From a virus: DNA of 64,000 nt. Under the pieces are notes generated by a model. It was not told where the DNA came from, did not search any database, and saw only the letters and a program-made list of their open reading frames with translations. Position numbers and translations under genes: made by a program. The stretch spans positions 64,001 to 128,000 of the IMG/VR virus record IMGVR_UViG_3300036791_001056; one strand, written 5' to 3'. How positions within the stretch are numbered: the stretch's first letter is position 1; the number at the start of each line of letters is the position of its first letter. This document shows, one piece after another, positions 19,848 to 40,019 of the stretch.

Positions 19848-22800
19848 TCAACTGATTCCGCGGATCTTGAGGATCTCGCGCCAGGCAGCTTCCCGCTGCG
19901 CTGGGTATGGAGTGGTGCGCCAGTCGTGCTCCAACTCCATCAACCTCATGGCTTGAATGCGCTCCGCGCTCTCTGCCATGGTCGGCGCCGCCGGCGCCGA
20001 GGTCTGCATCTTCTGGATGGGCGCAGCGAGAGCCGCGCCCCGGTATGCGAACACAGCCGGGTCAGGCTGCGCGCTCAGCTGGCTGAGCGTCTTCGCCTGC
20101 TTCTTCAGCAGCTTGGCCTGCCGCCGCACGGTCGCCTGCAGCTCGGTGAGCTGCTCGGTAATGACGTCCGGTGCCGCCGCGGTGAGCTCTACACTCTTAG
20201 TCACCAGCTCACCGGTAACCTGCTCACCCTTGGTGAGCTGGCGCGGCACCGCCGGCATCTTCATGGTCTCCGGCGCCGCGTCGGGCTCCTTCTTGGCGCC
20301 CTCACCGTGCATGGGACAGATGTCAGGGAACGTTTGCTGGATGTGATCGTGGATCGCCTGCATCGCGGTGCGAGTGGTCTCGCGGCCCGCGTGAGAGTAG
20401 AACGTCCGGCCGGCCTTGGCGGCGACCACGTCGCTGATGGCCTTGCTCACCGCTGCTGACGCGCTGGGAACGCCGTTCGGAGTCCCGCTCCCCGGGCTCA
20501 TCGCGGCGTGGCCATCGCTGAGGAACGGGCGCTTGAACTGCGCCGCCTCGATCTCGCCCGAGGTGATCGGCGTCTGGTTCGGGCTTCCGTAAGCCGGAGA
20601 CGGCGCTGCGTGACCCGCGCTGATGTACGGCCGCTGGAATTGACCTGGCTGGCAAGCAGCGGGCGTCGGAGCAGTTCCCGGGCCCGGATTCGCGTCACCG
20701 AACGCCTTGTGCAGCTCCTCGTGCGCCTCCCACACGTCAGCGGGCACCGCGTGCTTCAGCGTGCTGGCGTGGTGACCGAGCTGCGCCGCGCGCGCTGCCT
20801 CGTGGTACGGCAGCGACGTGGCCATGTCCAGCGACTTGACCTGCCACTCCACCTCATTGATCTCAGCCGCGAGGCTGCGGTCCGGGTAGCACTTAACGAT
20901 CATCTCCGGGCTGAACGCGGCGCACGTCATGTCGTGCAAGACGCCCATCGTCATGGGAACGCCTGACTTGACGATGCGCGCCAGCGCCAGCGCCCCCGAC
21001 TCGCTCTTCAGCGCCGGCGCCTCCAGCGGTCCGGGTGCCTCATGGTCATCGTCCTGCATGTGCGCGTCATCCTCGAGCGCCTCAACCGCAGCGCCGTCGG
21101 GCTCGCGGTGCGCGGGAGCCTCCTCGGTGTGCATGCCCCGGGCGCTCGCCGCCTCAGCGGGCGACTCACTCTTCTCGATGAGCTCAGCGCTCACCTCAGC
21201 GCTCTCGCTCTTCTTGACGCCCGTCTTATCAGGCGTCTCGCCCACGCTGCCGCCGGCCGGAGCGCCGCAGCCGGGACAGAACCGGCTCTTACCCTTCATC
21301 GCGCCGCCGCACTTACCGCACGTGACCTTGCCCTTCAGCGCCTCAGCTGCCACGCTCTTCCTCACCCGCGTGCCGGACCCGCCGCAGTCCGGGCACTTCC
21401 GGTTACCGCCCATGATCTTACCGGCGCCTCTGCACGTCTTGCACTTCTTCCCGGCAGGCTTGAACGCCTTCTCAGCCGAGTCATCACTCACGCGGCGCGC
21501 CACGGCGCCGTCTCCGTCACCGTCCGCGTCGAAGAGCCCATCACCGTCGTGATCAGCGTCACCGCTGCCCTCCACCACGATCTTGGTCTCCTTCTCGCCC
21601 TTCTCAACCGGATCGCCAGCAGTTGCCGTGCTCTCAGCCTTCTCAGCCGAGTCATCAGCATCGCTGTCATCACTGCGATCAGCCACGCCGTTCACGTTGC
21701 CCGTGCCGCTGCAGTCCGGGCACTTCATGTGACCGTCACGGATCTTCCCGCCACCGTGGCACGTAGTGCACGTGCCGCCGATCTTCAGGACCTCAGCCTC
21801 ATCTGCCGTCTTAGCGGTGTCCGGTAGTGCTGCCACGAACTCGGGCCCCTTCTCGTGGGCGATGCGCTTAATGTTGGCCTGCAGCTGCTCGGTGGAGTAG
21901 TTGTCATCACCGGCGCGCCCCACCGACTGCCACGCGTCAGAGACGTCGCCCGGGCTGGTGATCGGGAATGACCGGTTGCGGCCGGCAAACGCCGAGCTGG
22001 GCAAGGTGGCGCGATCCACGCCGCCAGGATGCGTGTCCTCACCCACGTTGCCGGACTTGCGCTTGCCAATGATCCGCGCCAAGTCAGCCGGCGTGACGGC
22101 CACACTCACGTCCTCCGGCAGCTCGAGCGTCACCATCTTTTCTGCCACTGCTGCCGTCACACCGGCTCCTTTCCTCGTATAATCAGGCTTTGGGACGGCT
22201 CCCATGCCGTGAGTGTGGGCTAGCCCCCAGTCAACCAGCACACCGTCCCGCGTGACCGGCCGCAGCTGATGGTTCGTTACGGCCTCTTCTTGAGCGCGAT
22301 GCATCTCTTCGTGCATGGCTACGAGCTCATCTTTGCCAGACTTCTTCTTACCAGTCCTCCGGCCAATGCCCGGCAGCCCGGAGTGGTACGAGTCCATGTG
22401 AGCCCGGAGAGCACCGGCGCTCATCCGGTCAGCCGTCGGGTGATCATTCGGGATCGCGTCTCCGCCGATCTTCAGCCAGCCGTGCCGGAATGTGTCAGGA
22501 GTACCAGGAATGTGATGATCGTGGATGCTGTCCTTGGTAAGCACGCCGGTGCTGATCATCTTCTGGATGAACTCATCATTGCCCGTGATCTCACCGCTCA
22601 GCTCAGGTGACCCGTCCTTGGCCGCCTTCACGAGCTGAATGGCGCAGTTCTTGTTCGCGGGCCGGTCCACCAGGCTGATCTCCACGACCTGCCCGCCCTT
22701 GATGAGCCCGCCCCGGGCGCGCCCGTCGCGGACGATCTGCGGCCGCGCGATCCCGACCGAGTAGGCGCGCAGCGCTCCACCGAGGACCAGCTTCTGCGCG

Positions 22801-23102: not shown

Positions 23103-23128
23103 AGGTGTCCTCTGGTATAGTTTGGCTG

Positions 23129-23464: not shown

Positions 23465-23467
23465 AAC

Positions 23468-23836
23468 TCACCCAGCGTGCTGAGCGCGCAGTGACTCCCA
23501 CTCACCTACGGCCTTGGCCGCTGCGGCGCGAACCTCGGGCGTGACCTTGCCCCGCCCGCTAGCCCAGCGCTTCACCGATCCTACAGCGGTGGCAATGGCC
23601 TGTGACTCGCTCATCCCGCCTCGGATGAGCGCGTGAGCGATGTTCTGAATGTAAGCGGGCAGCTGGTCAGACTTACTGCCCCAGAGCCCGTGCGTGCCGA
23701 GCGGGCGGTGCGTGGTGCTGAGCTCGGGCGTCTCGGCTGACTTAACGACGGCGCCCTCATCTGGCCACTCAGATGTGGTCAAGATCTCACCCGGGTCATC
23801 TGAGTACGGGTTGCCGGGCGCGTCGCGGGTGGTCAC
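23468..23836 (-). CDS. Small head-region protein
   Basis: LPAYIQNIAHAL...SQAIATAV..VKRWASG motif; translationally coupled to the upstream gene. Confidence 0.75.
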   Translation of the reverse strand: MTTRDAPGNPYSDDPGEILTTSEWPDEGAVVKSAETPELSTTHRPLGTHGLWGSKSDQLPAYIQNIAHALIRGGMSESQAIATAVGSVKRWASGRGKVTPEVRAAAAKAVGEWESLRAQHAG

Positions 23837-26800
23837 GAGATCACCTCATTCGTGCGGCTGGGCAGCAGATGCATCACGAGATCACCGAACACCCGCGCTG
23901 GCCGGCGCGGGTTCATCTTCATGGTGTACTCGCTCCACAGCTCGGCGGCTAGCTCGAAGTCATCACTGGCTCCGTACTTCGATACCCTCTCACTGATCGC
24001 GCGCTTATTGGCACTCACCCAGTCACCGCGCAGATAATAGTTGCGCTGTGGGCGCGAGATCCCGATCGCGGCCGCCACTTGCTCCCAGATGTGCCAGTAT
24101 GCCTCATTATTGCCACTGGTAAGCAGCTCCCTCAGCTGAAAGTCCACACCGTGCCCGAACTCGTGCGCCAGCGTCTGGTCCACGGCGCTGTGCCCGGGAT
24201 CTGCGCCCGACCACCAGCCCGACTCGTTGTTGTACCTGCTCGCCTGCTCACGCCGCTCCCGGTTGGCTGGGAACGCCAGCTTGGTGCTGACGGTGATCGC
24301 GCGCGACGCTAGCTGATGCGTCGCCAGTGTCGTGGAGCGCCCGCTGCCGAGCCTGGTGCTAACGGTAATGCTAGTCCGCGCCACGAGGTTCGGGACGTAC
24401 CGGCCCTGCCAAGCGGTAGCGTGGTTGATGGTCTTCCGGATGGCGTTCCGGGTGTCATTGTTGGGTGAGATGCTCGGCGGGACCGTCAGCAGCTCGTAAC
24501 CCTTGAATCGTGCCCAGTCAGGAATAACATCGAGCGGCTTAGGCACAGCAGAGCTGAGCGCAGCCGCAATCGCTGCTCGCACCTCAGCGTCACGAGCCTC
24601 CTGGTAACGCAGCACATCAGCGCGCAAGCTAACGATCCGCCGCGTGAGCTCAGGCGCGCCAGCTTGATCAGCGCGGTGACCAGCCACCGTAAGGTGCGTG
24701 TCAACCACGCCGAACTGGTCACGCACCAAGCTAAGCCCAACCTGCCCCAGTGTGTTCAGCGCGCGGCTCAGATCAGCTCGGCGCGGGTCGCCTGCTGCCT
24801 CAAACTCGCGCGACACGTCATTGATCAGCTGCTCGAGCGAGTCGTGCAGCTGGCTCATCGTTGGTACGGGAGTGCTGGGCGCAGCCGGGCGCGGCAGTTC
24901 AGCTGGTGCCGGGGCAGTGGGCGCCGCTGGCGGCAGCGGCGCAGCAGGTGTGCCTGGCTGCTGAAGACTGCTCAGTGCCTGGTGCAGCTGGTCAATGTGA
25001 GTGGCCGACTGCTCATCATCTGCGCGGCCGTGGGCCTGGGACAGCGCGCTCAGCGCACCCGCGTGATCGCCAGCAGCGAGCCGCTCTTGCGCCTGCAGCA
25101 GCTTATCTTGAACGTTAGGCTGCGCACTAGCGGTCAGCATGTGCATGTTGTGATACAGCACCACTGCTTGGGACGCCTCTTGCCGCGATGTGAAGTGCCC
25201 GAGGACAGTGGACTTGCCCATGATCGGTGACGTGTACTTGATCTTATAGCCCGGGTCACCCGGCTCTCTCTTCAAGTCCCGGCCGATGACGTGTCCCGAC
25301 GGCGCCACCGTCTTGCCACCGTGAGTCTGCCGCCGCGCCTCTTGATACCTCCCGCAGGGAGGCCGCACGCAGATGTAGCCGTGGATGTAGCCCTCGGGAC
25401 CGACCTTCAGCAGGTCTGCGATGCGGATCTTAATCTTCCCGCCAGTGGTGCGCGCAGCAAACGATACCGGCTCCCACTCCGCCTTATTCGCTGAGCTCGC
25501 TCCCTGGTGCACCTGGAACGAGTGGGCCTGGAACCACGGATCAGCCGCGTTGTCTGACGGCGCGAACCCGATGTACGCCTTCACCGGCCGGCGCTCTTGC
25601 CGGTACGCCAGCGCCCGGTGATGCCCGTCGATGACCACATCTCTCTGGTTTCCCGGGACGCGGACGAGGATGACCGGGTTGACGTCCTGCCCGCCGCTGC
25701 GGATGCGCTCAGCGAAGCGCGCCACGCGCTGCCGCTGGTGATGCGCCGCCCACGAGTTCTCTGAGTCCCAGTCAATAGCGGTGAGCGGAACGTTGACCGG
25801 GCCCACCCAGCGCAGCTGCCGGACCCACGCGATTCCCTTGGGCTCGTAATTCGCGAGGAGCTGCTGGTAGATGTGCTCAGCATCCACGGGCGTCTGGTCA
25901 CGCAGGTCAGCAGCGCTCTTTTCGACGTTGACGCTTGACCCCGCGTCAGCGCCCGTCAAGCTCACGTAGATCACGTTGCCCAACCGCCGGTCGACCCGGA
26001 ATGACGAGCCTCTCGGCAGAATGAGCTCGCTCTCGCTCGCCTTACCGTGAATCATGTGCTGGCCGGCTGGTGTGGTTATGACCAAGATCACCGGTGTGCC
26101 GCCGATCGCAGCCGGCCCGATCGCTGGGTCCATGCCCGCTGACCGCTGCTCACCAAACCGCCTAGCCATCGCTGGGTTGGTAGTAACAGAGGTGTACGCC
26201 AGCTCGCGGAACGTCTTACCGGGAGTCAGCGCATCACTGGCGGCCTGATGCACCGCCAGCCCGCGGTAGAACGTTCCCTGCTCACTCGCCGTGGACAGCG
26301 CCAGCGCCTCATCGGTCTCTCTGACGAACGGCACGTCACTCTTACCAGCGCGCAGCTCGGAGTTGATCATGCTGTTGCCGCGCGGGTCGATGTACGCATC
26401 AACTGCGTGATCCAGCTGAGCACGCTTACCAGAGCTGACATTAGTGACAGCCAATGACGGCGCTAGCACGCTCTTCAGCTTTACCGGCTTAACCACCGGC
26501 TTGAACTCGTTGTGATACTGCGCCAAGAAGCGCAGTGCGATCTCTTCAGACGGCGCGTCGGCCGCGATCTTCCCATCGTAAAATGACTTAGTGCTGCTGA
26601 ACGGGCGGCGCCTCACGCTCGCCACTACTACGCCGCTCGGCACATGCTTAACCTGATCACCGTCAATGCGCAGGTCACCAGCATTAATGTGACCCAGCTC
26701 TTCCAGCGCGCTCTTACCGAGAACTGCCTTGGTTCCGTCATCAAACGTAACTCGCACCTGATCATCACGTCGCCCAGTGATGATCCCGTGCCCACGCTCT

Positions 26801-26970
26801 GGGTGAGTGATCTCATCGCCGCGCTTCCCGCACGGTGGCCTCACGCACACCCAGCCGTGAACGTAGCCCTCCGAGCCCACCTTGATCATGTCAGCTAGCT
26901 GCGGAAGATTGAGCGAGACTGCTGCACTACCGGTCACGCGGGGCACATGCTGCCAGCTCAGCGTGACCAT
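23833..26970 (-). CDS. Head-region polyprotein: ADP-ribosyltransferase + ParB-like + zincin metallopeptidase
   Basis: ART: INSELR, FYRG, YTSVT, ESELILPRG. ParB-like: VIDGHHRALA. Zincin: HEFGH...SKYGASDDFELAAE. Two KVG.EGY.HG..CVRPPCG tags. Confidence 0.85.
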   Translation of the reverse strand: MVTLSWQHVPRVTGSAAVSLNLPQLADMIKVGSEGYVHGWVCVRPPCGKRGDEITHPERGHGIITGRRDDQVRVTFDDGTKAVLGKSALEELGHINAGDLRIDGDQVKHVPSGVVVASVRRRPFSSTKSFYDGKIAADAPSEEIALRFLAQYHNEFKPVVKPVKLKSVLAPSLAVTNVSSGKRAQLDHAVDAYIDPRGNSMINSELRAGKSDVPFVRETDEALALSTASEQGTFYRGLAVHQAASDALTPGKTFRELAYTSVTTNPAMARRFGEQRSAGMDPAIGPAAIGGTPVILVITTPAGQHMIHGKASESELILPRGSSFRVDRRLGNVIYVSLTGADAGSSVNVEKSAADLRDQTPVDAEHIYQQLLANYEPKGIAWVRQLRWVGPVNVPLTAIDWDSENSWAAHHQRQRVARFAERIRSGGQDVNPVILVRVPGNQRDVVIDGHHRALAYRQERRPVKAYIGFAPSDNAADPWFQAHSFQVHQGASSANKAEWEPVSFAARTTGGKIKIRIADLLKVGPEGYIHGYICVRPPCGRYQEARRQTHGGKTVAPSGHVIGRDLKREPGDPGYKIKYTSPIMGKSTVLGHFTSRQEASQAVVLYHNMHMLTASAQPNVQDKLLQAQERLAAGDHAGALSALSQAHGRADDEQSATHIDQLHQALSSLQQPGTPAAPLPPAAPTAPAPAELPRPAAPSTPVPTMSQLHDSLEQLINDVSREFEAAGDPRRADLSRALNTLGQVGLSLVRDQFGVVDTHLTVAGHRADQAGAPELTRRIVSLRADVLRYQEARDAEVRAAIAAALSSAVPKPLDVIPDWARFKGYELLTVPPSISPNNDTRNAIRKTINHATAWQGRYVPNLVARTSITVSTRLGSGRSTTLATHQLASRAITVSTKLAFPANRERREQASRYNNESGWWSGADPGHSAVDQTLAHEFGHGVDFQLRELLTSGNNEAYWHIWEQVAAAIGISRPQRNYYLRGDWVSANKRAISERVSKYGASDDFELAAELWSEYTMKMNPRRPARVFGDLVMHLLPSRTNEVIS

Positions 26971-26980
26971 CGCAGTTTCC

Positions 26981-27124
26981 TTACTGAGAGTCGTCCTCTG
27001 GGCCGCCCTGATCGTGTGACGTGTCGATGCCCGCCTCCGCTGCCGCCGCGTTCAAGTCACGCAGCCAGTTCTGGTTGCCCGGGTCGTCATCGATGTTGCC
27101 GATATCGATTGGCTGCTCACTCAC
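26981..27124 (-). CDS. 47-aa acidic peptide
   Basis: GTGA overlap with the upstream stop; MSEQPIDIGNIDDDPGNQNWLRDL...; fills the gap to the next gene's RBS. Confidence 0.6.
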   Translation of the reverse strand: MSEQPIDIGNIDDDPGNQNWLRDLNAAAAEAGIDTSHDQGGPEDDSQ

Positions 27125-30183: not shown

Positions 30184-33100
30184 GTCATCACCGCACTCTT
30201 GGGCATCGCTGTCATGTATGCGATAGTAACGCCTCGCTGTGAATCACGATGAACTGCGGTCAAGTGCAGCGGCTGATCTCTGTCGAGGATCAGCTCCCGC
30301 TCTTCTGGTGAGTCTGAGAACGGCTGCGCCCAGACAGCAGGTGTACCCTTTGGCACAGTGATGTGCAGAACTGTCTTATTCTCACGACCCACATCATATG
30401 CGCCTGACGTAAGTGACGTCGAGGAGAACCCATGATCCGCGATCACATCACCCGGTGACAGATCACGCAGCGCCTGCTCATCATCCAGCTCACGATGCAC
30501 GATTACAGCAGCAGGCAGTGGCTGCATCGCTGATGACAGATGCTCACTCATCTCTCGGGAGTGAGCATCAATGTTGCCACTCCGCAGCCCATCATTAATG
30601 TCCTGGTAGCCGTTGCCAATGTAACCAGTGATGGCCCCGACCTGCGCAGGTGTGTACGTGAACGCACGACTCAACTTACGGCCAAAGGCACGTGCCTCTG
30701 CTGCGCTGGTAATCTCACTAGCATTAACTGTGCCTGTTACCCGTGACCACTCACCGTGAGCATCACGGGGCTCAAGTGAGTCGAATCGCTTTTCAACGGC
30801 AGCGCTACTCACCGGAACAAGCCACGGCTCACCGTCACGCAGCTCGATGATCACGTCACCTGAGCTCAGCTCACCGGGCTGCGCATCAGCTGGTTCTGCG
30901 GCAGCAGCACTCTTCGCCACGCTCTCGTACCGCGCGTGCCCCGTTGCCTCCTGCGCCGCGCGGAAGTCAGCCTCGCTGAAGCCGTACTCACCGAGCCGGT
31001 TCATCTTGGACACTGCCTTGGACGCGAAGTCCGGGTAGTGCCAGACGGTCACGCGCTGGCTCTGCATGTCCACAACCTGGACAATCAGCGCGGGCCGCAA
31101 GTTCGCGCTCGCCACCGCGGCGCGCTTGCGCTCGATCTCCTCACGCTTGATTGCCGTCTTCAGGTTCTGAGCGTTGCTGTTGAGCGTCTTCAGCTCGCCG
31201 CCGTAGTCACCGATCTTAAAGTCCAGCGGCGTCTGCCGCGACATCCAGCCGCCCGTCGCTGAGATCGGCTCGTACGTCACGCCGAGCTGCTGCTCGAGCA
31301 GGTGCGCACCGTGAGCAGCGAACAGCTGCTCGAACGTGTCACCAATCTCAGACTTGCCCATCGGGCTGCCCGTGACCGGGTTGACGAACTGAGTGGGCGT
31401 CTGGACGGGATCGCGCTGGCCCTTCCAGCGCTTGGACGGAACGGCGCCTGCTGTCCACTCACCGCGCGCATTACGCAGCTCAGCTGGGTCGAACTTCTTC
31501 TCAGCCCGGCCATACCACCGGTCGCAGACGTGATCCGCGTCGATGTGCCCGCGGACGAGGGTGCACTTACCGTGCTCATCATCTACGTCGCTCGGCCGGT
31601 ACATGACGCAGCTGGCGCAGCGCTGGCTGGCGCGCCGGTCTGCCTGCCGGTAGTCAACCGTGCCTGGGCTGAGCAGCTCGGCCTTCTGGCACTTGATGAA
31701 CAGCCCCGTGACGAGCTGCTTCTGGACGGGTCCCGCCGTCTCGAGAGCGCGCCGGACGCGCTTCGGGTGCTCACGCAGCTCCGGCCGGATCGCCGGGTTG
31801 TCCCTCAGCTCGCGCGGGTCCCACCAGGCGATGGCCTCGGGCTCCTCATTGTCCGGGTCGTCGGGGTTAGCGCCCTTAGCGCGGTCGAGAATCGGTACAT
31901 CAGACTCCCGGCCCACGCTGAGCACGTGCCCTCGGTACGGTCCCTCACCGGTCTCCCAGGTCCCGGTGACGCTGCCAGCCGGCACGGGAAGTCCAGTTTC
32001 CTCACCCCACTCGCGCCGGGCCGCCTCCTCCACGCTCTCACCGGGGTCCTCGGGCCGGCCGCCGGGGAACTCCCAGTACCCACCCGCGGGATCATCCTCA
32101 TTGTGGGCGCGCTGGATCATCAGGACCCGGCCCGTGTCACGAGCCCGCACCGCCAGACCTCCGGCCACGAAGCCGTCTGCCGTCAGCGGCGCAGCAACTG
32201 ACGCAAAATCGGACTTAGAGACAGACCACCTATCTGCGCTATCATACGCTGTTTCACCGTGGCGCTGCAACTGTGACTTGACTGCCGTTACTGCTGAGCC
32301 ACGCGGCATCGGCACCGGGTTAAAGCCCGGCAGTGGCGGCGCGGTAATGTGACTGAGATCGATGCCAAACGCGCTGCCCGGCACCAGGGCGCACCTACAG
32401 CGCGGATGCCCGGGCGGGCCCTCCCGGCCGTCCGGGAACAGCCCCGTGACCGGAACGGCACCCGCCGCCTCATTGCCGCGGCAGATCTTGCAGACGCGCT
32501 CATCCGGCGCGACCAGCCACTCCTTGGTGTCGATCCCGTCATCGCGGTACCGGTCCAGCGTGCCGCACGTAACCGCTCGAGCGAGCTCCGTCTGCGCGAT
32601 CATCTCCGCGCGCTCTGGTACAGTCAATAGGTCCTGGATGCGGCGGGCCAGCTCACCCACGCTCTGCCCCTCGGCGAGCGCCCCGGCGATCTCCCGCGCC
32701 AGGTCATCCAGCCCCGTCTGAGAGACGGACTGGATGGTGTTGACGCCCCACTGCTGCAGCAGCTGCTGCAGGCGCGGCCCATCAGCCACCAGCGCGGCCG
32801 CGTCGAAGTCACCGGGCTCCCAGCCGCCCCAGTCAGGCACCTCGGCGGTGGCGGCGATCTCCGGCGTGGCGATCCCGGCGATGACGTGCTCAGCCGAGAC
32901 GGTGCCGAGGGCGTACCCCTCGGTCCAGAGCTGCCCGAAGACGCGCCGCAGCGCGGCGGCGATCAGCTCGCTGATGTGCTGCGCCGCCCACTGCGCGGTG
33001 GCGCGGATCACGCCGCCGAAGAACTGGCTGATGAACTCGCGCACAGCCGTCATCGCTGATGCGAAGGCGCCCTGGATCTTGGGCGCGTAGATCTTCACCA

Positions 33101-36100
33101 GGTCGAGGTCACGCAGCCAGCCGGGCCAGCTCGGCTCAGCCTTTGCTACCCACTCGTACTCAGCAGGAGCGAGGCGAAAGGTGCGCACCTTCGCGACGCT
33201 GACGGCCTCATCAGCGGTCAGCCCCTCCGCCATGCTTCTCGCGATGTCACCCAGCGCGGTGTTCGGGATGAAGCACGCCGTCCACGTCGTGACGGGCCGG
33301 CCCTTGCGCAGGTGCCGCGCCAGCGCCTCGAACTCCGCGCTGGCGCGCTTATCCATGTCAGGCACGCTGACCTTGGCGGCGCTGGCGCGCTCGCGGTTAG
33401 CGGTGACGGCAGCCGCGTGACCCGGCGTGGGTGCACCCGCGCGGCTCGGCTTGGCGCCCGCCGGTGAGGCAGAGGCGGGAGCAGCCAGCGCTGCCTGCCG
33501 CTCCTGCATCGTCTGGTCGTGGGCCTCTTGAGCGCGCTGCTCTTGCTGCACTCCTGCGGCGGTGCTGCTGACCGTCTGCGTGGTCTGAGCGTTGGTGCCA
33601 GCGGTCTGAGCGCGAGTCTGCTCCGTCTGCGCCTGCGTCTGCTCGGTGCCCGCTTGGGTCTGCGCCGTCTGCGCCACCGTCTGAGCGATGCCAGCGTGCG
33701 TTGCCGCGGTGCCCGCCTGCGTCTGAGCGATCTGCGCCTGCGTCTGCGCCGACTGCTGCGCGGTGCTCTCGACCGAGTTCGCGATGCCCATGTGCGTCTG
33801 CGCCGTCTGCGCCTGAGTGCGCTCTGTGCCGGCCTGTGTCTGAGCCAGCTGCGCCTGAGACTGCGCCACCGCGTTCTGCGCCTGCTGCACCGCCGTCGAG
33901 AGCGGCACCGGCCCGTTGGGCGTGACGATGAGCGGCTCGCTGGACTCCTCGAGGCCGTACGGCTGCAGGTTGAGCTCTTGCCGGCACTCGTCGATGGTCC
34001 GCAGCCCGTTCTGCATCTGCTGGACCAGCACGCCGGTGAGCGCGTCCTGGTCCTCCTCTTGCTGCAGCCCCTCGAAGGTGAACTGCATGTCGTCCTGCTG
34101 GCAGATCACCTGCAAGACCGCGTTGAAAATGTCCGAGAGGAACTTCAGCAGCGGCGTGACGCCCGTGTCCTCGCTGCGGTCGTGCGACTGCTTCGCCATC
34201 TGGTTCTGCGCACCGGACGAGTGCGACGAGCTGCGCCCCGGCGTGAACCCGATCTCCAGCGGCGTCACCCCGAACGCTGAGCAGACCTCGCTGATGAGCA
34301 GCTGGTCCAGCTCGTCCGCGGTGGTGATCGGGCGCTGCGGCTCGATCTTGCTGTTCGGTGGTAGGACGATGATCTTCTGCTTCCACGCCGGGTCGCCCGC
34401 GATGGCGTTCAGCGCGTCCTGCAGCTCGCGCAGCTGGTTCGGAGTCATCGCCGTGTCGCCCGGGATGACGTATGCGGCTGGCACGGTGGACTCCGAGAAG
34501 AATTCGTACTGGTACCCCTGCTTCTGCAGGCCCGTCATGATCGGGATCAGGGCGCGCTCTACCGGCGGGAAGCCGTACGGCGTCCACGTCCGCGGGACCA
34601 TCGGGACGTACAGCAGCTGGTCGCCGCGGAACTCAGCCAGCTGCCGGCCCTTCAGCCCGCTCTCCTCGATGTCATCATCAAACATCATGGTCATGAGGTC
34701 CGAGCGCGGCACGCCGTAGAGATACTGCTGATAGGCCACGCAGTTCCCTGACCATACGGGATGCCCGTTTCGCCGGGCATAAATCACACCGTTAGGCACA
34801 GTAACGCAGTAAACGCGTCCTGAGTACTGCACCTCTCTTACGCGACTTGCCGGGTAACCAGTTGTGCGAACATACATCCGGTAGCAGCCGTCACCAGAAG
34901 CTCGCACCGATGACGAGTAGCCGAGCTTCTGGATGATCTCTTGGAAGTCATCTGCCATCTGTGTGCTTGAGGTCGCAACAGCGTACTGGGCAGCTCCACT
35001 TCGCTGAGCCTGCGGCCGGCTCTTACTGTACCGGACCTCAGCACCGTCACCCAAGCAGTAGTACCGCCAGAAGATCTCAAGCTGCCGCTTCGGCATCTCA
35101 AGAATCTCTGCTGGCGCGAACTTATCCTTAGCATAACCAAACTGATGGAGATAGCGCCACAGCGCCTTCGCTCGGATCGCCCAGCCAGCCAGCTGCCCGT
35201 TCGTCACATGGTGCTTAACGCCAAAGATCTCGCTGATCAGCCGGCCAAACTCTGCAGCTCCCTTACCATTCTCAGTCTGGCAAATCATAAAGTTGTAGCC
35301 GTTTTTAACGGGATCGTGACTCAGTGAGCCCTCAGACAGGTACATCCCCATGAAGGCAGCATACTGGTCACCTGTCATTGAGATAGGCTCATCATGCCGC
35401 GGGTTATGCCGCCTGCAGCCACACTCGGGTGAGCACCTCCGCGCATAATGCACAGCACCAGTATAGTTAATTTTTACCAGGTTAGCGCGGACTGGGACAG
35501 CTGGTCCATAACTCACGTGCACTGGCTGGTTGTCATCAGCCCACGTGAACGTTTGCCCGGCTGGGGTAAACGTCACGTCACGAAGTTCCCGGCCAGTCCA
35601 TACGCTCGTGGCAACAAGACCAACAGCGGCTGCGTGCACACCCCGTGCTTCACGCCGATGCTCATACTCTAGAAGATGCTGAGCCGGCAGCAACCACTCA
35701 CGCCGTGCTGTAGTATGACTCCGAGTAAGCTGACCTCTATCATCACGGTATGTGCTTGACCTTACCCAGCCTTCAGGACCGGTAGTCGTCAGCACACGGT
35801 GATCTGGCGTTACGAGAGAGTCGGTACCCCGGCCATAGAAGTGAACCATTGGCCCACTGTACGGGTAGTCAACATACGCAACTGGCTGCTGCCACTCAAA
35901 TTCTCCGTTACTGGATCGAGTCGCTACCTCTTCATCATGCTTAAGATCACGGAATAGCTTCCAGCCACTACGAGTGAGAATCTCAGTGTCATCACTGTAG
36001 CACGGCGGGCGCGGCGTGCCACCGTGGAGGTTGAGCAGCGGCCGGATGGTGGGCCCGTTGATGAGCATGAAGTTCTCGAGGTCTGAGCCCAGCACGCCCT

Positions 36101-36776
36101 GGCCCGCGCCCTTGCCCCACGTCGGGATCATGAGGATGGACAGCGCGTCGAAGACCAAGATCTCCTCGATCATCGCGGAGATCCACGTCGCGTAGCTGAA
36201 GTAGTTGCGGTCCGGCCGGTTAAAGAACTTCAGTGCCTTGGCCCGGCGCTTACCAAAGTCGGCCTGCAGCGCCGGTGAGCTCTGGTACGCCTTCTGCGCC
36301 TCAGCGGTGGGGGTAATGTCCCACTCGATGCCTCGGACCTGATTCTTCCGGAACTCGATGCACGATCGGGCGATCGAGTAGACGTCAGCCAGCTTCTGGA
36401 GGGTGCTGAAGCTGACGAGCTTCAGGCCCTCCTGCCCCGGCTGCCCCGTCGGCAGGTTCCAGCCCGGCTCGTACTGGTACCGCCGCGGCACGGGCCTCTC
36501 GGCACCCGGCGGCGGGGTGTCCACGCCGGTCGGCAAGATCGGTGTGAACGGTGAGAACGCGCCCGCGGTGAAGTCCTCCGTCGGGCGCGGCAGGTACGGC
36601 CCGTACAGCGCGCGGTAACCCAGCCCCTCATTCCCGAGCTGCATCGCCAGCGGCGAGAACCGGCCGGTGCTCTGCCCCGGCAGCGCCAGCCCGCTCGATC
36701 CCTGCGGGCCGGGAGTCGGCCGTGCGCCCCCCGGGATGGTCAGGGCACCCCTCAAGATCGCGCCGCGTGATGCCAT
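30180..36776 (-). CDS. Portal protein (intein) fused to MuF, Nudix, Cys4 module, PD-(D/E)xK-like nuclease and ADP-ribosyltransferase
   Basis: Portal: PYGFPPVE, AFGVTP.EIG, TIDECR..L.L.P. MuF: AEMIAQTE...HPRCRC. Nudix: WEFPGG...GES.EEAARREWGEETG. Nuclease-like: PLDF...GELKT. ART: INDGLR/FSSTS/EERELIL. Confidence 0.92.
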   Translation of the reverse strand: MASRGAILRGALTIPGGARPTPGPQGSSGLALPGQSTGRFSPLAMQLGNEGLGYRALYGPYLPRPTEDFTAGAFSPFTPILPTGVDTPPPGAERPVPRRYQYEPGWNLPTGQPGQEGLKLVSFSTLQKLADVYSIARSCIEFRKNQVRGIEWDITPTAEAQKAYQSSPALQADFGKRRAKALKFFNRPDRNYFSYATWISAMIEEILVFDALSILMIPTWGKGAGQGVLGSDLENFMLINGPTIRPLLNLHGGTPRPPCYSDDTEILTRSGWKLFRDLKHDEEVATRSSNGEFEWQQPVAYVDYPYSGPMVHFYGRGTDSLVTPDHRVLTTTGPEGWVRSSTYRDDRGQLTRSHTTARREWLLPAQHLLEYEHRREARGVHAAAVGLVATSVWTGRELRDVTFTPAGQTFTWADDNQPVHVSYGPAVPVRANLVKINYTGAVHYARRCSPECGCRRHNPRHDEPISMTGDQYAAFMGMYLSEGSLSHDPVKNGYNFMICQTENGKGAAEFGRLISEIFGVKHHVTNGQLAGWAIRAKALWRYLHQFGYAKDKFAPAEILEMPKRQLEIFWRYYCLGDGAEVRYSKSRPQAQRSGAAQYAVATSSTQMADDFQEIIQKLGYSSSVRASGDGCYRMYVRTTGYPASRVREVQYSGRVYCVTVPNGVIYARRNGHPVWSGNCVAYQQYLYGVPRSDLMTMMFDDDIEESGLKGRQLAEFRGDQLLYVPMVPRTWTPYGFPPVERALIPIMTGLQKQGYQYEFFSESTVPAAYVIPGDTAMTPNQLRELQDALNAIAGDPAWKQKIIVLPPNSKIEPQRPITTADELDQLLISEVCSAFGVTPLEIGFTPGRSSSHSSGAQNQMAKQSHDRSEDTGVTPLLKFLSDIFNAVLQVICQQDDMQFTFEGLQQEEDQDALTGVLVQQMQNGLRTIDECRQELNLQPYGLEESSEPLIVTPNGPVPLSTAVQQAQNAVAQSQAQLAQTQAGTERTQAQTAQTHMGIANSVESTAQQSAQTQAQIAQTQAGTAATHAGIAQTVAQTAQTQAGTEQTQAQTEQTRAQTAGTNAQTTQTVSSTAAGVQQEQRAQEAHDQTMQERQAALAAPASASPAGAKPSRAGAPTPGHAAAVTANRERASAAKVSVPDMDKRASAEFEALARHLRKGRPVTTWTACFIPNTALGDIARSMAEGLTADEAVSVAKVRTFRLAPAEYEWVAKAEPSWPGWLRDLDLVKIYAPKIQGAFASAMTAVREFISQFFGGVIRATAQWAAQHISELIAAALRRVFGQLWTEGYALGTVSAEHVIAGIATPEIAATAEVPDWGGWEPGDFDAAALVADGPRLQQLLQQWGVNTIQSVSQTGLDDLAREIAGALAEGQSVGELARRIQDLLTVPERAEMIAQTELARAVTCGTLDRYRDDGIDTKEWLVAPDERVCKICRGNEAAGAVPVTGLFPDGREGPPGHPRCRCALVPGSAFGIDLSHITAPPLPGFNPVPMPRGSAVTAVKSQLQRHGETAYDSADRWSVSKSDFASVAAPLTADGFVAGGLAVRARDTGRVLMIQRAHNEDDPAGGYWEFPGGRPEDPGESVEEAARREWGEETGLPVPAGSVTGTWETGEGPYRGHVLSVGRESDVPILDRAKGANPDDPDNEEPEAIAWWDPRELRDNPAIRPELREHPKRVRRALETAGPVQKQLVTGLFIKCQKAELLSPGTVDYRQADRRASQRCASCVMYRPSDVDDEHGKCTLVRGHIDADHVCDRWYGRAEKKFDPAELRNARGEWTAGAVPSKRWKGQRDPVQTPTQFVNPVTGSPMGKSEIGDTFEQLFAAHGAHLLEQQLGVTYEPISATGGWMSRQTPLDFKIGDYGGELKTLNSNAQNLKTAIKREEIERKRAAVASANLRPALIVQVVDMQSQRVTVWHYPDFASKAVSKMNRLGEYGFSEADFRAAQEATGHARYESVAKSAAAAEPADAQPGELSSGDVIIELRDGEPWLVPVSSAAVEKRFDSLEPRDAHGEWSRVTGTVNASEITSAAEARAFGRKLSRAFTYTPAQVGAITGYIGNGYQDINDGLRSGNIDAHSREMSEHLSSAMQPLPAAVIVHRELDDEQALRDLSPGDVIADHGFSSTSLTSGAYDVGRENKTVLHITVPKGTPAVWAQPFSDSPEERELILDRDQPLHLTAVHRDSQRGVTIAYMTAMPKSAVMT
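34743..36002 (-). mobile_element. Intein (420 aa) with LAGLIDADG-like endonuclease in portal
   Basis: PP|CYSDDTEILT.SGW, VTPDH, MGMYLSEGS, YCLGDG, VYCVTVP...WSGN|C; lower GC than flanks. Confidence 0.92.
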
Positions 36777-36952: not shown

Positions 36953-37618
36953 CTACTCACCCTTTGGAGTGGAGTTTCGCGCTGCTCCACCTTCACGCGC
37001 CACACTCATCAATGTTGAGTAACGGCCCACGCCAGCACGCAGCGCTTGCTGATACCGCTTACGCTCAGCAGGCGTTAGCGCGGCGATCTCTGCCTGCTGC
37101 CGTGCGTATTCATCACGACCAGCGGTGCGCTCCGGCGCCACCTCACCTAGTGTGCTGATGCCAATGCCTAGCGCACGCTTATGCCCCTTGCCCTCATCTC
37201 GTGCACGGAAGTACGCCTCACGTCCCGCTGGCTGCAGACTGCGCACCTCATCCGAGTTGACTTGATCAGCAGCTCGCGGACTGTCGCGCCACGTGCGCTT
37301 ATTAGTACCGTGGGGAGGGTTGGTCACCTTAGCCATCGCTGAGCTGTGCGGGATGTTTGCGTCGCGCAGCCGGTTATACCGCTTGCGCTGCTGGGGAGTG
37401 AGCGCATCAACTTCACTCTCACCCAAGCCAGCTCCCACGTGGACCCACTCACCGTGAGGCCCGCGCGGCTCAGCCGGGTTGAACCGCTTCACAGCATCAG
37501 GCTCAGCCGCCGCCTTGAAAACCAGCGCCGGATCGAAGATGCGCAGCGCCAGGTGCGCGCGGATCTCGTTCCGCCGCCGCTCCAGCTCAGCGCTATACTC
37601 AAACTCGTCACTCAGCAT
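36953..37618 (-). CDS. Head-region cargo protein
   Basis: Start reassigned to ATG 37618 after AGGAG; KRFNPAEPRGPHGEW tag; three ALTP...Y..R repeats. Confidence 0.75.
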   Translation of the reverse strand: MLSDEFEYSAELERRRNEIRAHLALRIFDPALVFKAAAEPDAVKRFNPAEPRGPHGEWVHVGAGLGESEVDALTPQQRKRYNRLRDANIPHSSAMAKVTNPPHGTNKRTWRDSPRAADQVNSDEVRSLQPAGREAYFRARDEGKGHKRALGIGISTLGEVAPERTAGRDEYARQQAEIAALTPAERKRYQQALRAGVGRYSTLMSVAREGGAARNSTPKGE

Positions 37619-40019
37619 CCGCGTCTCCTGACTTGTACGCCGTAGGATAACCGCGCGACTCACCAACGCCTGCGCTGGCCTGCCCCCGGAGGTACCCGCT
37701 CTTCGCCTGCCACATCGCCGAGTCGTGCCCGAAGCCCGCGCCGCGCGCCGCATCATAGTCAGCGCGCTGCTCGGCAGTGAGCGCGGCGCGCTCCTGCTCA
37801 GCCGGGCTCAGCGTTGGTGCAACGGCGCTGCCCGGCGCCGGTGCCGGTGTGGGTTCAGGCGCATGACTAGGCACCGTTGGCGCGGCAGGCGCTTCTCCAC
37901 GAGGAGCAGTACGCGGTCCTGACCCGTCGTGCCGGACGTCCAGGGCCTTCAGCAACCCGTTCTCGCCAGTGATTCGCTGATATGGAATCCCCTTGGCGTC
38001 GAGCGCCTGCGCGTACTGCTCCACGCGCTCAGCGTTACGCTCGTCTGAGGTATTCCGCGCCATGATGCTGCTGCCGTTGTAGTGGCTAACCGAGACACCG
38101 TGCTCACCGCCGCTGACCTCGTAACCGGCGTAGTAAGTACGCCAGCCCCTGACCATCTGGCTGCCGGTGGACGTAACCGGCTTGTGGCCCGCCGCGGTGA
38201 GCGCAGCACGCACCCGGCGTGCGTTCACGTCGCCCGCGATCAGGCGCTTGGCCTGCTCGACGTTGGCAGCGTGCCGCTCGGCCGGCGCCTTATCACGCAC
38301 GCCGGCTTCACCACTCGCGGTCAATTCGATGGTGCGGTTTCCGAGACTGAGCTTACCGTACCCGCCGCCGAGGTCTTGCCGAGTGTCCACCATTCCCAAG
38401 AACTTACCCTTGGCATCCGTGATGTGACTGGCGAGCACTTGATACGGTCGCACCTTGGCACCGTACTTAGCCTGCTGCTTGGTCGGGTACTGGTGCCGCG
38501 TCAGCTCGCTCGGTTCACTGTGCCGCAGATCAGCCGGGCTGATGAGTACCTGCTTCACCTTGGGCGCCTTCGGCGGCTTAAGCTTACCACCGCTCGGCGG
38601 CGTAGGAGCGTGGCTTGGCTCGGGCAGCGGTGCTCCTGGTGGAGCAGGAGCGTGTGGCGCAGCTGCCGCCAGATCCTGTGGCGCAGGAGCTGCAGCCGCT
38701 TGATTGCGCCTGAACAGCTCGGCAATCTCAGGATCAGCCGCACGCCGCCGCCAGACATTTCGCGTCGGCTCATTCAGGTCACTCCAGGCACGCGTAGGTT
38801 CTGGTCGGCCAATGCCGCTCTGAGCCCGGGTGCGCATCGTGGACTCATACATGTCTCGCGCGATTTGCTCATTCACACTACCAGTATCTGGCACCTTGTC
38901 CGGCACCGGCACGCCGCCCGCGAGCTCCGTCGCGATGCCCTTGGCGGTCTCACCCGCCGCGGTACCCACGTTCGTGCGGGTCGTGGCGCGGTCGATGTGC
39001 GTGATGGCGGCGTCAAGGTGCGTCTTAGCATCCTCAAGCCGGCCTTCCTCAACGGCCTGGCCCGCCTTGCGGAAGTCGCGCCCCGCGGTCATGTACCGCG
39101 AGTTGGCGCTGCCCTGCGCGCGGCTGGCCGCGGTCTCGCGGTCCATCGTGTCCGCCAGGTCACTGAGTCCCCGCATCCAGCGGCCGTGCTGGTCACGAGG
39201 CTCGGCCGGGTTATACTTCCAGCGCTTCTCGATCATCTCGGCGTCGCCTCCAGCTCCGTTCCTGGAGTCAACTATATCACTCAGCCCCAGGCGCTGGCTA
39301 GCTGCTGCCCAGATCAGCTCCCGGCGCTCATCGAGCGTCGCCTCCAGGACCAGGCTCTTGCTGACTTTTGGGACCGGAGTCACGATGACCTCCGGCACCG
39401 CGCTCTTGGCAGCGATGAGCGCCGCCTCCTGCTGGCGCAGCTCCTTGATCCGGGCCTGGAGCTGCGCGATCTGCGCGTTCACCTGCGCTAGCTGCTTGGC
39501 GCGGCTCGGCGTGGACTTGCTCGGCTTCGCTGAGGTGGCGCTGCCCTGCCCAGTCGCCCGCGTCGCGGTTCCGGTGGCGCCCGCTGCCCCGGCCGGCTTG
39601 CCGCCGCCGGTCACGGACGTGCCCCGGCCGGTCGATGCGCCCGCGGTGGCCGCGACGAGCCGAGCCTTCTGCGCCTCGAGCGACGAGAGCTGGGTGGTCA
39701 GCGCGCTGATCTGCGCGCGGATGCCGCGCAGCTGCTGCAGCTTAGGTGAGCCCGGCTGCTGCCCACTCCCAGGCGGGCGCTTACCCTGCTTGGGCTGCTT
39801 CTGCTTCTTGGACTTCTTGGGCTGCTTCTGCTGTGCGGGTGGCTGCTGGCCACCACCCGCCGGTGCGAACTGCCCGCCGGTCGCTGCTCCGGCGGGCTGG
39901 TGGTACGGGTCAGCCTTGGTGATGACGTCGGGCACCGGCGGAAGTCCCCAGCTCGCGACCGCCGCCTCGCGGATGCGCTGCCGCTCGGCCGCGATCGTGC
40001 TGAACAGGCTAGCCGTCAC
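37608..40019 (-). CDS. Head-region cargo polyprotein
   Basis: Start GTG 40019 after GAGGAGG; tags KADPYHQPAG..GGQF and KYNPAEPRDQHGRW; coiled coils. Confidence 0.8.
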   Translation of the reverse strand: MTASLFSTIAAERQRIREAAVASWGLPPVPDVITKADPYHQPAGAATGGQFAPAGGGQQPPAQQKQPKKSKKQKQPKQGKRPPGSGQQPGSPKLQQLRGIRAQISALTTQLSSLEAQKARLVAATAGASTGRGTSVTGGGKPAGAAGATGTATRATGQGSATSAKPSKSTPSRAKQLAQVNAQIAQLQARIKELRQQEAALIAAKSAVPEVIVTPVPKVSKSLVLEATLDERRELIWAAASQRLGLSDIVDSRNGAGGDAEMIEKRWKYNPAEPRDQHGRWMRGLSDLADTMDRETAASRAQGSANSRYMTAGRDFRKAGQAVEEGRLEDAKTHLDAAITHIDRATTRTNVGTAAGETAKGIATELAGGVPVPDKVPDTGSVNEQIARDMYESTMRTRAQSGIGRPEPTRAWSDLNEPTRNVWRRRAADPEIAELFRRNQAAAAPAPQDLAAAAPHAPAPPGAPLPEPSHAPTPPSGGKLKPPKAPKVKQVLISPADLRHSEPSELTRHQYPTKQQAKYGAKVRPYQVLASHITDAKGKFLGMVDTRQDLGGGYGKLSLGNRTIELTASGEAGVRDKAPAERHAANVEQAKRLIAGDVNARRVRAALTAAGHKPVTSTGSQMVRGWRTYYAGYEVSGGEHGVSVSHYNGSSIMARNTSDERNAERVEQYAQALDAKGIPYQRITGENGLLKALDVRHDGSGPRTAPRGEAPAAPTVPSHAPEPTPAPAPGSAVAPTLSPAEQERAALTAEQRADYDAARGAGFGHDSAMWQAKSGYLRGQASAGVGESRGYPTAYKSGDADAE

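Follow-up and report, generated by a model that had tools for sequence, protein, structure and literature searches.

Seven multi-enzyme head-region proteins of an uncultured phage share lysine joints and two families of tags at module borders

The window, the whole stretch of 64,000 nucleotides analysed here, belongs to the 146,953-bp genome of an uncultured phage in which 20 kb of the head-gene region code for seven multi-enzyme proteins. Their ORFs (gA-gG, n = 7) all lie on the minus strand and occupy 19848-40091, between terminase and the capsid gene as the original prediction had placed them. In the features given below, a slash marks a predicted cut, h stands for a hydrophobic residue, and the tags are the short peptides that had been predicted to follow a lysine at the start of many cargo modules.

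46235-48556: terminase, flanking the cargo block
37608-40091, minus strand: gA, 827 aa
about 39864-39920, minus strand: gA N-terminus, K and a tag2-like motif (regex on translations)
39177-39227, minus strand: K and tag1 of gA, preceded in order by a K/P-rich basic stretch, a coiled coil and AAK/SA, and followed by the C-terminal part
36953-37756, minus strand: gB, small protein, likely start ATG 37618; a helix, then AVK and RFNPAEPRGPHGEW (tag1, 37445-37489), then a helical part
30180-36776, minus strand: gC, 2198 aa
33777-34706 and 36003-36776, minus strand: gC portal (phrog_2662, E=1.9e-62), followed by a Q/A/T-rich linker to MuF
34707-36002, minus strand: gC LAGLIDADG intein, splitting the portal
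about 32367-33149, minus strand: gC MuF (PF04233, E=1.2e-11)
31773-32189, minus strand: gC Nudix (E=8.6e-19)
31500-31739, minus strand: gC Cys4 module, weakly HiPIP-like (E=0.00098)
31455-31499, minus strand: first tag1 of gC, heading a possible PD-(D/E)xK module
30912-31454, minus strand: the possible PD-(D/E)xK module of gC, residues 1775-1955, a lead only (Atlas score 0.89)
30747-30791, minus strand: second tag1 of gC, heading an ADP-ribosyltransferase
30183-30746, minus strand: gC ADP-ribosyltransferase (ART; E=8.7e-19)
27121-30183, minus strand: gD, 1020 aa, N-terminus disordered
29680-29712, minus strand: gD leader strand, directly before K169
29650-29679, minus strand: gD K169 and tag3, with a small beta/helical domain
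27124-28053, minus strand: long C-terminal part of gD, common to the relatives P0018, P0019 and P0039
23833-26970, minus strand: gE, 1045 aa
26854-26883, minus strand: gE leader, K30 and tag3 (regex on translations)
about 25936-26403, minus strand: gE ART, weak (E=4.7e-5, just short of the Pfam cut-off)
residue 351, minus strand: gE VEK351/S joint, preceding the ParB/Srx-like module
25483-25917, minus strand: gE ParB/Srx-like module, ending ..ANK496
25408-25446, minus strand: second leader of gE, followed by K522 and tag3 (25378-25407)
24961-25344, minus strand: gE beta/helical domain
23836-24663, minus strand: gE C-terminal putative zincin with HEFGH
23468-23836, minus strand: gF, 122 aa; leader ending VVK and SAETPELSTTHRPLGTHGLW, then a small helical module
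19848-23102, minus strand: gG, 1084 aa
22626-23102, minus strand: gG assemblin-fold prohead serine protease (H70, S115), ending at IQLVK159/A
22473-22532, minus strand: gG decayed tag3, KDSIHDHHIPGTPDTFRHGW, heading an inserted module
21798-22022, minus strand: gG conserved GGVDR..RSFPI domain
about 21258-21770, minus strand: gG DnaJ-type Zn ribbons
20634-21005, minus strand: gG helical domain
19851-20171, minus strand: gG coiled coil and C-terminal helical hairpin, scaffold-like
18969-19772 and 16943-17980, minus strand: major capsid protein, split (overall 16943-19772)
18077-18874: DUF559 endonuclease gene between the two capsid protein pieces

We read the block as a probable array of polyvalent proteins of the capsid-cargo kind, consisting of a portal(intein)-MuF fusion that continues into Nudix, Cys4, a possible nuclease and ART, a protease-Zn-ribbon-scaffold fusion and five mosaics. 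About twenty modules are carried on the seven polypeptides: two or three ARTs, Nudix, ParB/Srx-like, zincin, Cys4, Zn ribbons and others. At least two disparate activities are found in each of two chains, with Nudix and ART beside portal/MuF in gC and a weak ART, a ParB/Srx-like module and a putative zincin in gE. Association with head domains is seen in the fused portal and MuF of gC and in the position of all seven genes between the terminase and capsid genes. The portal, MuF and protease fusions agree with the prediction of multi-domain head-module proteins, and within its domain list Nudix and the gC ART stood. The ParB-like assignment rests on fold (PadC, sulfiredoxin and SerK, prob 1.0) together with weak HMM matches, and the zincin on HEFGH and weak Foldseek matches to PPEP and lethal-factor-type peptidases (prob 0.5-0.66), with no match in the Pfam search. 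The gE ART is weak, the Cys4 module weakly HiPIP-like and the PD-(D/E)xK nuclease an Atlas lead only. A third ART, considered for the gD C-terminus from an R..SxS..E-like pattern, was not confirmed. No significant family was found in Pfam and NCBIfam for gD, gA, gB, gF and most gG segments. P0043 contains the helical module of gF within its chain, and P0037, a portal-MuF protein, ends with it (70% and 53% identity).

The prohead protease that had been expected is present at the N-terminus of gG. In the AF2 model, residues 10-149 have a pLDDT of 74-94 and match T4 gp21 (5jbl; Foldseek E=6.9e-5, prob 1.0, TM 0.62-0.67) as well as herpesvirus assemblins, the KSHV protease with prob 0.96. All 67 homologs keep H70, S115 and K159. 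By their position we read H70 and S115 as the probable catalytic His and Ser, and K159 lies in a low-pLDDT linker directly after the protease domain. TIGR01543 aligned over almost its full length (E=0.017; 15 bits, where the cut-off is 59), PF14550 gave E=0.14, and PF04586 gave no match up to E=1. Since these values fall below the curated Pfam S78 and TIGR01543 thresholds, the gG protease is a distant member by fold. In the N-terminal part of the capsid protein, an h-x-K64/[SA] sequence (IMMK64/SA) is kept in three homologs and is a candidate for maturation cleavage, sharing the h-x-K/[SA] pattern of the cargo joints.

A regex on the translations of the seven genes recovered the motifs where they had been predicted. 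K(R/K)(F/W)..(N/D)xxExRxxxG(E/R)W (tag1) occurs at 39177-39227, 37445-37489, 31455-31499 and 30747-30791, KVG(P/S)EGY(I/V)HG (tag3) at 29650-29679, 26854-26883 and 25378-25407, and KADPYHQ..GGQF in gA at about 39864-39920 instead of the earlier 39861-39917. None of 2000 residue shuffles reproduced either tag1 or tag3, and when all 146,953 bp of the genome were scanned in six frames, the tags proved confined to the seven genes. The h-x-K-[SA]-x motif was seen 27 times against 9.3 expected, a count reached by 0 of 2000 shuffles. Lysine makes up 4% of the cargo proteins and 2.1% of the remaining proteome; per lysine, the motif, which was defined post hoc, is 2.8 times commoner than in the remaining proteome (p=3.6e-4).

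The tags are real and sit at module starts, but the four distinguished earlier collapse to two families. Tag4 is a decayed tag3, P0046 having LLK-VGPKGYVHGWLKIGGDAI at that position, and tag2 can most likely be counted as a tag1 variant, an assignment made by eye through an intermediate form, P0101, which starts MFNPAEPRVAAGSATAGQW. The consensus is [FYW]-N-P-x-[QE]-P-R-D-x-x-G-[RK]-W for tag1/2 and V-G-P-x-G-Y-[IV]-H-G-W-[IV]-x-V-G for tag3/4. A conserved leader strand (..K-h-K-h-x-h-A-D-L-h-K/), overlooked in the original prediction, precedes many joints and stands ahead of K both at N-termini and within chains. In gD and gE, 42 identical bases lie beneath GYIHGYICVRPPCG, and the codon is shared at 16 of 23 identical residues. 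Autocleavage of tag1 at Asn-Pro was set aside, as the copies in the window carry D-P and D-S there.

Lysines had been predicted to mark domain boundaries, and in relatives of these proteins modules begin and end exactly at h-x-K. One lysine site of the gG protease itself, FPIAK/AETD, falls in strand 11-23 of the modelled protease domain and is probably not a joint because it lies inside the fold. Several h-x-K-[SA] sites of gG (K20, K34, K54, K94 and K799) lie within folded or conserved domains; the short motif alone therefore does not define a cut.

As to the borders, gE has 33 mosaic relatives that share just 6-52% of its length. BLASTP matches limited to the ParB-like module run from gE residues 339-351 to residues 496-497. 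The module stands directly after h-x-K/ in most of 21 rows and ends with ..NK in 18 of the 21, after which unrelated sequence follows (tag1, tag3, Nudix, Cys4 and others). Similarly, in P0033, P0035, P0037 and P0041 the MuF end (..CRC..), read by eye, is followed by h-G-K and then by a differing module. Natural N-termini also coincide with the residue after K. In P0052, P0060, P0100 and P0101, a gA-type tag, basic stretch and coiled-coil module is fused N-terminal to the protease; this module of roughly 200 aa ends ..ADLLE-K/AATLTGSGE, and the gG protease starts M-AATLTADGE, where these relatives have K/AATLT. Three of the four N-terminal modules open with tag1 or tag2 at residues 2-4, and stand-alone proteins elsewhere also start with a tag, for example MFNPDQPRDDHGRW. 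In gG homologs, module inserts are present or absent at fixed places.

Joints are invariant in sequence and predicted to be disordered. In gE, K522 and G524-G540 are invariant (alignment A4), and pLDDT is below 50 at 489-542 and up to 360, which includes K351, with neighbouring domains at 80-96. Compared globally with lysine positions, the BLAST match ends gave only a weakly positive result (ends 0.29 and starts 0.32, each against 0.25 expected), and the module-specific border comparisons were relied on instead. In the GenBank phage collection, tblastn found no cultured carrier of the ParB-tag3 module and a near-identity DNA search with gC no match; portal relatives there are distant, all below 30% identity, and the portal-MuF fusion of Arthrobacter phage Sonali has no tags. 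A search for related loci with whole gE found none, and one with the gG protease domain gave two truncated relatives.

The original prediction spoke of a combinatorial toolkit of injected effectors; its tags are general phage motifs, found in thousands of phage proteins, and no private set. Searched against 1.84 billion proteins, the tag1 profile matched 3,852 representative protein clusters (E<=1e-3); a protein can hold as many as 9 copies, at a median spacing of 252 aa. Tag1 has portal, MuF or protease domains on one side and effector domains on the other. The upstream domain (n = 65) was portal in 15, MuF in 9 and S78 protease in 2, and downstream are found ARTs, zeta toxin, PBECR nuclease, topoisomerase IB and Nudix. 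Elsewhere, Gly-rich linkers and dozens of unrelated folds follow it. Since they head modules in hundreds of other phages, the tags are not placed at random relative to domain borders, and the original prediction passes the refuting check it had set itself on this point.

Lysine stands at -3 or -2 of 52% of tag1 copies, and about half of the copies elsewhere have no Lys ahead. The choice is consistent within a protein, as in P0164 (7/7) and P0167 (0/5), and [DE]-L precedes about a third of tag3 copies. Within contigs, the residue before the tags was concordant in 121 of 136 pairs, also across both tag types, which 0 of 5000 shuffles reached. A gG-like protease turned up solely at loci where K precedes the tags (20 loci). 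In five [DE]L-type records, of which three are complete, the search found no gG-like, S78, S78_2, ClpP or S49 protease, a weak negative because the Pfam S78 model misses gG too, up to E=1. Shared descent and the duplication of modules confound both the within-contig concordance and the link of the protease to K. The residue before the tags is lineage-specific, K accompanying the gG-type protease. Tag and Lys are separable elements, because about half of the other lineages lack the Lys before tag1 and the searched [DE]L-type records lack a gG-like protease. As about half of the tag1 copies elsewhere have no Lys ahead and the [DE]L-type phages searched have no recognisable prohead protease, the tags must serve some role independent of a Lys cut.

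Phage T4 carries Alt and the internal proteins IPI-III, which include an ADP-ribosyltransferase, in its head and injects them, an experimental precedent for head-borne enzymes. Its capsid targeting sequence is a short N-terminal peptide upstream of a cut and is removed by the prohead protease gp21, an assemblin-fold enzyme that cuts after Glu (L/I-x-E). The gG protease model matches gp21 and shares this fold, but the joint is h-x-K, and the tags lie downstream of the predicted Lys cut and would remain on the cargo, the leader strand alone being lost. This strand could fill the part of the targeting sequence. Unlike T4 cargo, that of the window is arranged in long polyproteins, some fused to portal or scaffold. 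Encapsulin cargo-loading peptides, which are short, mostly C-terminal and combined with a flexible linker, address enzymes to the interior of an HK97-fold shell. The tags are unrelated to them in sequence and may resemble them as short conserved address peptides.

The HK97 protease gp4 cuts the gp5 delta domain at K103/S104 (PMC10275583), that is, after a Lys before a small residue and in an unstructured stretch, to which the candidate h-x-K/[SA] site in the capsid N-terminal part corresponds. Both gp4 and gG have an assemblin-fold His/Ser serine protease, whereas that of gG continues into about 900 more residues, among them cargo modules and a scaffold-like end, and its putative substrates include some twenty non-structural modules. 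In temperate phages, MuF polymorphic toxins (Jamet et al. 2017, PMC5576092) combine a MuF head domain with variable C-terminal toxins or effectors such as ARTs; searching the paper for terms turned up nothing on cleavage, linkers or motifs. The gC layout of MuF and C-terminal effectors (Nudix..ART) is similar, but its MuF is not N-terminal and follows a fused portal, after which come five modules with tags.

The idea of packaged and processed cargo is not new in kind. Iyer, Burroughs, Anand, de Souza and Aravind proposed in 2017 (PMC5512222) that polyvalent proteins with ART, DdrB-like ParB, Nudix and zincin in one chain, fused to or near MuF/portal, are packaged, injected and cut into units. 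There, processing is mainly credited to zincin modules, assemblin-like peptidases are rare C-terminal domains, and term searches of the text found no mention of joint motifs. The window likewise has many unrelated enzyme domains per chain, fused to or beside MuF/portal; it differs by a protease placed at the N-terminus of a scaffold fusion and by joints that consist of Lys, two widespread tags and a leader. Word searches of the literature with both tag sequences gave nothing relevant, and descriptions of the two tag families, of exact h-x-K borders, of a lineage-specific pre-tag residue or of disordered invariant joints were not found in the literature searched.

We consider it probable, at roughly 0.6, that the block is a polyvalent cargo array whose joints are cut after Lys by the gG protease in the prohead and whose enzymes are packaged and injected. 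The gC chain would enter the prohead anchored to the portal, which is a 12-mer in known tailed phages, and the gG chain as a protease-scaffold protein; the other five chains would presumably enter without an anchor domain. Each joint would have up to three parts, namely an optional amphipathic leader strand, a hydrophobic-x-Lys site and a tag heading the next module. The gG serine protease would cut after Lys in the prohead in the manner of HK97 gp4, first freeing itself at K159 and then separating the modules, each of which would start with a tag or its native N-terminus. Trapped with the DNA, the freed enzymes would reach the host alongside it. Cleavage after Lys by the head protease appears well supported comparatively, and we infer packaging, cleavage, ejection and a tag partner. 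Our best guess, by analogy, is that the tag would be a docking peptide that folds on a prohead partner, like the T4 capsid-targeting sequence or an encapsulin cargo-loading peptide. More tentatively, both tag families may be general capsid cargo-loading peptides of tailed phages, with a lineage-specific protease site that would expose a disordered N-terminal address for docking to a conserved prohead partner.

The joints could instead be recombination linkers in which leader and tag homology serves module swapping and the chains stay intact, like the pre-toxin regions of polymorphic toxins. The 42 identical bases of gD and gE, the 16 of 23 shared codons, the extremely mosaic architectures and the gG inserts that come and go at fixed places all favour such linkers, which we nevertheless think unlikely. 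The tags are kept as protein in thousands of distant phages with different DNA, so selection on the tag peptide itself is needed, and Lys retention, natural N-termini at K/ and the occurrence of K-type joints with one protease family are left unexplained; recombination is in any case compatible with cleavage by the gG protease, as a side effect. Processing by the gE zincin, before packaging or after injection and with the prohead protease uninvolved, was argued from P1 DdrB in PMC5512222, and an HExxH zincin ends gE and many relatives. It is quite unlikely here: the zincin occurs in just 1 of 7 proteins, the Lys joint also ends the protease domain (invariant K159) and occurs in the N-terminal part of the capsid protein, and K-type joints co-occur with the gG-type protease.

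It is distinctly improbable that the tags are primed-side protease recognition or structural caps with no addressing role, the Lys being possibly an ordinary linker residue. Beta-rich sequence (..IxVG..) does always follow tag3, and K is common in the cargo proteins (4% vs 2.1%). Caps are hard to square with a tag and flanks predicted to be disordered ahead of a confident next domain, and with the Gly-rich linkers and dozens of unrelated folds after tag1. A protease site with at least 10 invariant residues on its primed side would be unusual, and the tags are present in the searched [DE]L-type phages without a recognisable protease. That the cargo proteins are cytoplasmic late or early enzymes merely placed in the head operon, and not virion components, is highly improbable. 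Five of the seven have no recognised structural domain, but two chains are covalently fused to portal and protease-scaffold, the same modules are found free, portal-fused and protease-fused among relatives, and in many phages tag1 follows portal, MuF or protease domains.

For how phages beyond T4 may address proteins to the capsid interior and how giant polyvalent proteins may become working enzymes, the window and its relatives yield a concrete grammar of leader strand, h-x-Lys, tag and module. The tag1 profile covers 3,852 clusters, and therefore an N-terminomics or tag-reporter result from any cultivable carrier would bear on very many phage proteins. Should the grammar prove right, it would permit automatic delimitation in metagenomes of cargo modules, of which many are probably anti-defence or host-takeover enzymes, and there would be a handle for loading chosen proteins into phage heads in laboratory strains. 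If the tags are indeed cargo-loading peptides, thousands of phages would share one modular load-and-release route for injected enzymes, and any protein would be packageable by adding leader-K-tag.

The window spans bases 64001-128000 of the source record of this phage, which is 146,953 bp long with ~64% G+C and is rated complete, and no close relative was found among GenBank phages. On the minus strand, the terminase gene is followed, after a few plus-strand genes, by the seven head-region genes gA to gG (40091 down to 19848). The capsid gene comes next, and the tape measure gene lies beyond it. The features surrounding the block are as follows.

46235-48556, minus strand: terminase gene, intein-bearing (Intein_splicing, Hint_2)
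18969-19772 and 16943-17980, minus strand: major capsid gene in two pieces, matching two halves of phrog_13692
18077-18874, minus strand: DUF559/Vsr-like endonuclease gene between the capsid pieces
16098-16913: further DUF559-type gene, next in order

Since an endonuclease gene separates its two pieces, the capsid gene is likely interrupted by an intron with a homing endonuclease. Capsid introns have a precedent in Cluster J mycobacteriophages (PMC3706429). The related locus L003 has the same split layout.

The gC protein (2198 aa) runs from a portal domain through MuF, Nudix, a Cys4 module and a further module to an ADP-ribosyltransferase (ART). Its portal is interrupted by a LAGLIDADG intein of ~430 aa (34707-36002, minus strand), with Cys as first residue and SGN followed by C at its end. 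The Cys4 module (31500-31739, minus strand; ..CGTCVMF..C.LV.G.I....VCDRWE) is recurrent and weakly HiPIP-like (E=0.00098); it forms a separate cargo module in many relatives, including the proteins P0025, P0030, P0035, P0036 and P0037, often directly before tag1, one of the short motif families found at module starts. gE (1045 aa) comprises a weak ART, a ParB/sulfiredoxin-fold module (Foldseek matches to PadC, Srx and SerK, each with probability 1.0), a beta/helical domain and a C-terminal HEFGH zincin. No significant Pfam or NCBIfam family was obtained for gA, gB, gD or gF. Behind the N-terminal tag of gA (39400-39860, minus strand) the chain is first very basic and K/P-rich and then forms a coiled coil rich in Ser, Thr and Ala. 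This module is free in gA and fused ahead of the protease at the N-termini of P0052, P0060, P0100 and P0101, and could serve in DNA binding or as a scaffold-like spacer.

gG (1084 aa) begins with a protease domain, the AlphaFold model of which (residues 10-149, pLDDT 74-94) matches the T4 gp21 head protease (5jbl, E=6.9e-5, probability 1.0) and also herpesvirus assemblins. H70 and S115 are invariant among 67 homologs, and the HK97 proheadase model TIGR01543 aligned nearly full length with a score far under its cut-off. Further along are a small inserted module and a conserved domain, then DnaJ-type zinc ribbons, a helical domain and a coiled coil, and last a confidently modelled C-terminal helical hairpin; this end is read as a putative scaffold part.

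The original prediction, a lysine site, short tag and effector repeated across the block, listed motifs that are all present where it had placed them. Neither tag1 nor tag3 occurred in 2000 residue shuffles, and the joint pattern h-x-K-[SA]-x (h, hydrophobic) had a count of 27, with 9.3 expected. When all six frames of the complete genome were scanned, the tags were confined to the seven genes. An H-G-(x)-[WY] core is present in 7/7 proteins and ~6x rarer per residue in the remaining proteome. The four tags, originally considered distinct, reduce to two families. Tag4 is a decayed tag3, the gG site reading KDSIHDHHIPGTPDTFRHGWLKIGGDAI where the close homolog P0046 has LLK-VGPKGYVHGWLKIGGDAI. 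Read by eye, tag2 is most likely a variant of tag1: K-ADPYHQPAGAATGGQF of gA reappears as the extreme N-terminus of P0060 (MDPNHVAAGDPTGGQF), and P0101 (MFNPAEPRVAAGSATAGQW) is read as a form intermediate between the two.

The predicted placement of lysines at domain boundaries is supported by the ends of ParB-like modules, the N-termini of gG homologs and K159 of gG. The gE family is a textbook mosaic, each of 33 relatives sharing just 6-52% of gE length. BLASTP matches limited to the ParB-like module begin at gE residues 339-351 and stop at 496-497; the module ends in NK in 18/21 copies with unrelated sequence after it, and most copies are preceded by h-x-K/ (the slash marking the proposed cut). 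By eye, P0033, P0035, P0037 and P0041 have G-K/ and a differing module after the MuF end. Four gG homologs carry an extra N-terminal module of ~200 aa ending in ADLLE-K/AATLTGSGE, and gG of this phage starts M-AATLTADGE; cleavage behind this Lys would restore the natural protease N-terminus. K159, which directly follows the protease fold, is invariant, and the next residue is Ala/Ser in 60/61 sequences. The capsid protein has h-x-K64/[SA], kept in its three homologs; the HK97 maturation cut is at K103/S104, within an unstructured stretch (PMC10275583). The gG and capsid proteins both start MAATL(T/E) (19848-19860 and 19758-19772, minus strand), and in fused relatives the joint Lys is likewise followed by AATLT.

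Missed by the original prediction was an amphipathic leader strand, (G)K-h-K-h-x-h-A-[DE]-L-h-K/, which is conserved ahead of many joints (22 matches in the family vs one elsewhere among the genome's ORFs). It precedes tag3 and ParB modules, both at protein N-termini and within chains. The gE model is confident for the ParB module (361-488), the post-tag3 domain (543-670) and the zincin; residues 489-542, containing K496, the leader, K522 and the tag, have pLDDT <50, as does the stretch up to 360 holding K351. Since the alignment has a single invariant block, K522 and G524-G540, and this block has low pLDDT, the modelled joint is typical of a peptide that acts by being bound or cleaved.

In IMG/VR, 56 cases of tag3 follow K and 31 follow [DE]-L. 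The type is concordant within contigs (121/136 pairs; 0/5000 shuffles as high), and contigs carrying both tags have the same type before both; in the window, K precedes 7/7 copies. A gG-like protease was detectable in K-type loci only (20 loci, 29-87% identity), and none was found in five [DE]L-type records, including three complete ones; no protease was identified in the [DE]L-type records searched. This would fit a protease that co-evolved with its sites, with shared descent as a confounder.

We consider the block an array of polyvalent head-cargo proteins whose joints carry conserved tags (probability about 0.85). Inside the prohead, the gG protease would cleave the cargo chains on the C-terminal side of the joint lysines, a step to which we lean slightly. 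A docking or loading role for the tags is more speculative and in our judgment less likely than not. These weights are restrained because a global test of BLAST match ends against lysines was weakly positive, some h-x-K-[SA] sites sit within folds, and half of the tag1 copies elsewhere lack the Lys. The joints may also assist module shuffling, since 42 identical bases lie beneath the tag of gD and gE. Alternatively, the zincin may process the chains, as was put forward in 2017 for polyvalent proteins (PMC5512222).

Degenerate DNA patterns located tag1 in at least 120 IMG/VR stretches and tag3 in 89, with up to a dozen tag3 copies per contig. A 32-position profile from 93 tag1 copies, searched against 1.84 billion proteins, matched 3,852 representative proteins at E<=1e-3 and 538 at E<=1e-10, with up to 8-9 stretches per protein and a median spacing of 252 residues, about one domain, in the best 150 of the 3,852. 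Upstream of tag1 were portal (15/65), MuF (9/65) and S78 protease (2/65) domains; downstream were ARTs, zeta toxin, PBECR nuclease, topoisomerase IB, Nudix, RNase T and further MuF. A Gly-rich stretch usually comes after tag1. Several stand-alone proteins start with tag1. The 95.7-kb contig IMGVR_UViG_3300047576_000046 (loci L141, L150, L153, L168, L174 and L200; 60.8-95.7 kb) has a cargo array far larger than that of the window, with at least 12 tag3 joints over ~35 kb. On the MAG contig GCA_017886315.1, the position just behind the protease-scaffold gene, at which the capsid gene was expected, is taken by a small gene (L212:14387-15115, plus strand) for a tag3 cargo with DVVK-VGPKGYIHGWIHVG.

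The block shares its theme with polyvalent proteins (PMC5512222), the packaged enzymes of T4 (Alt and internal proteins) and MuF toxins, and this theme is known. A literature word search across 8 million papers for either tag motif returned nothing relevant, and term searches of the polyvalent-protein (PMC5512222) and MuF-toxin (PMC5576092) papers gave no mention of joint motifs. Undescribed, as far as could be found, are the grammar of the joints and how widely the two tags occur; the tags are general phage motifs.
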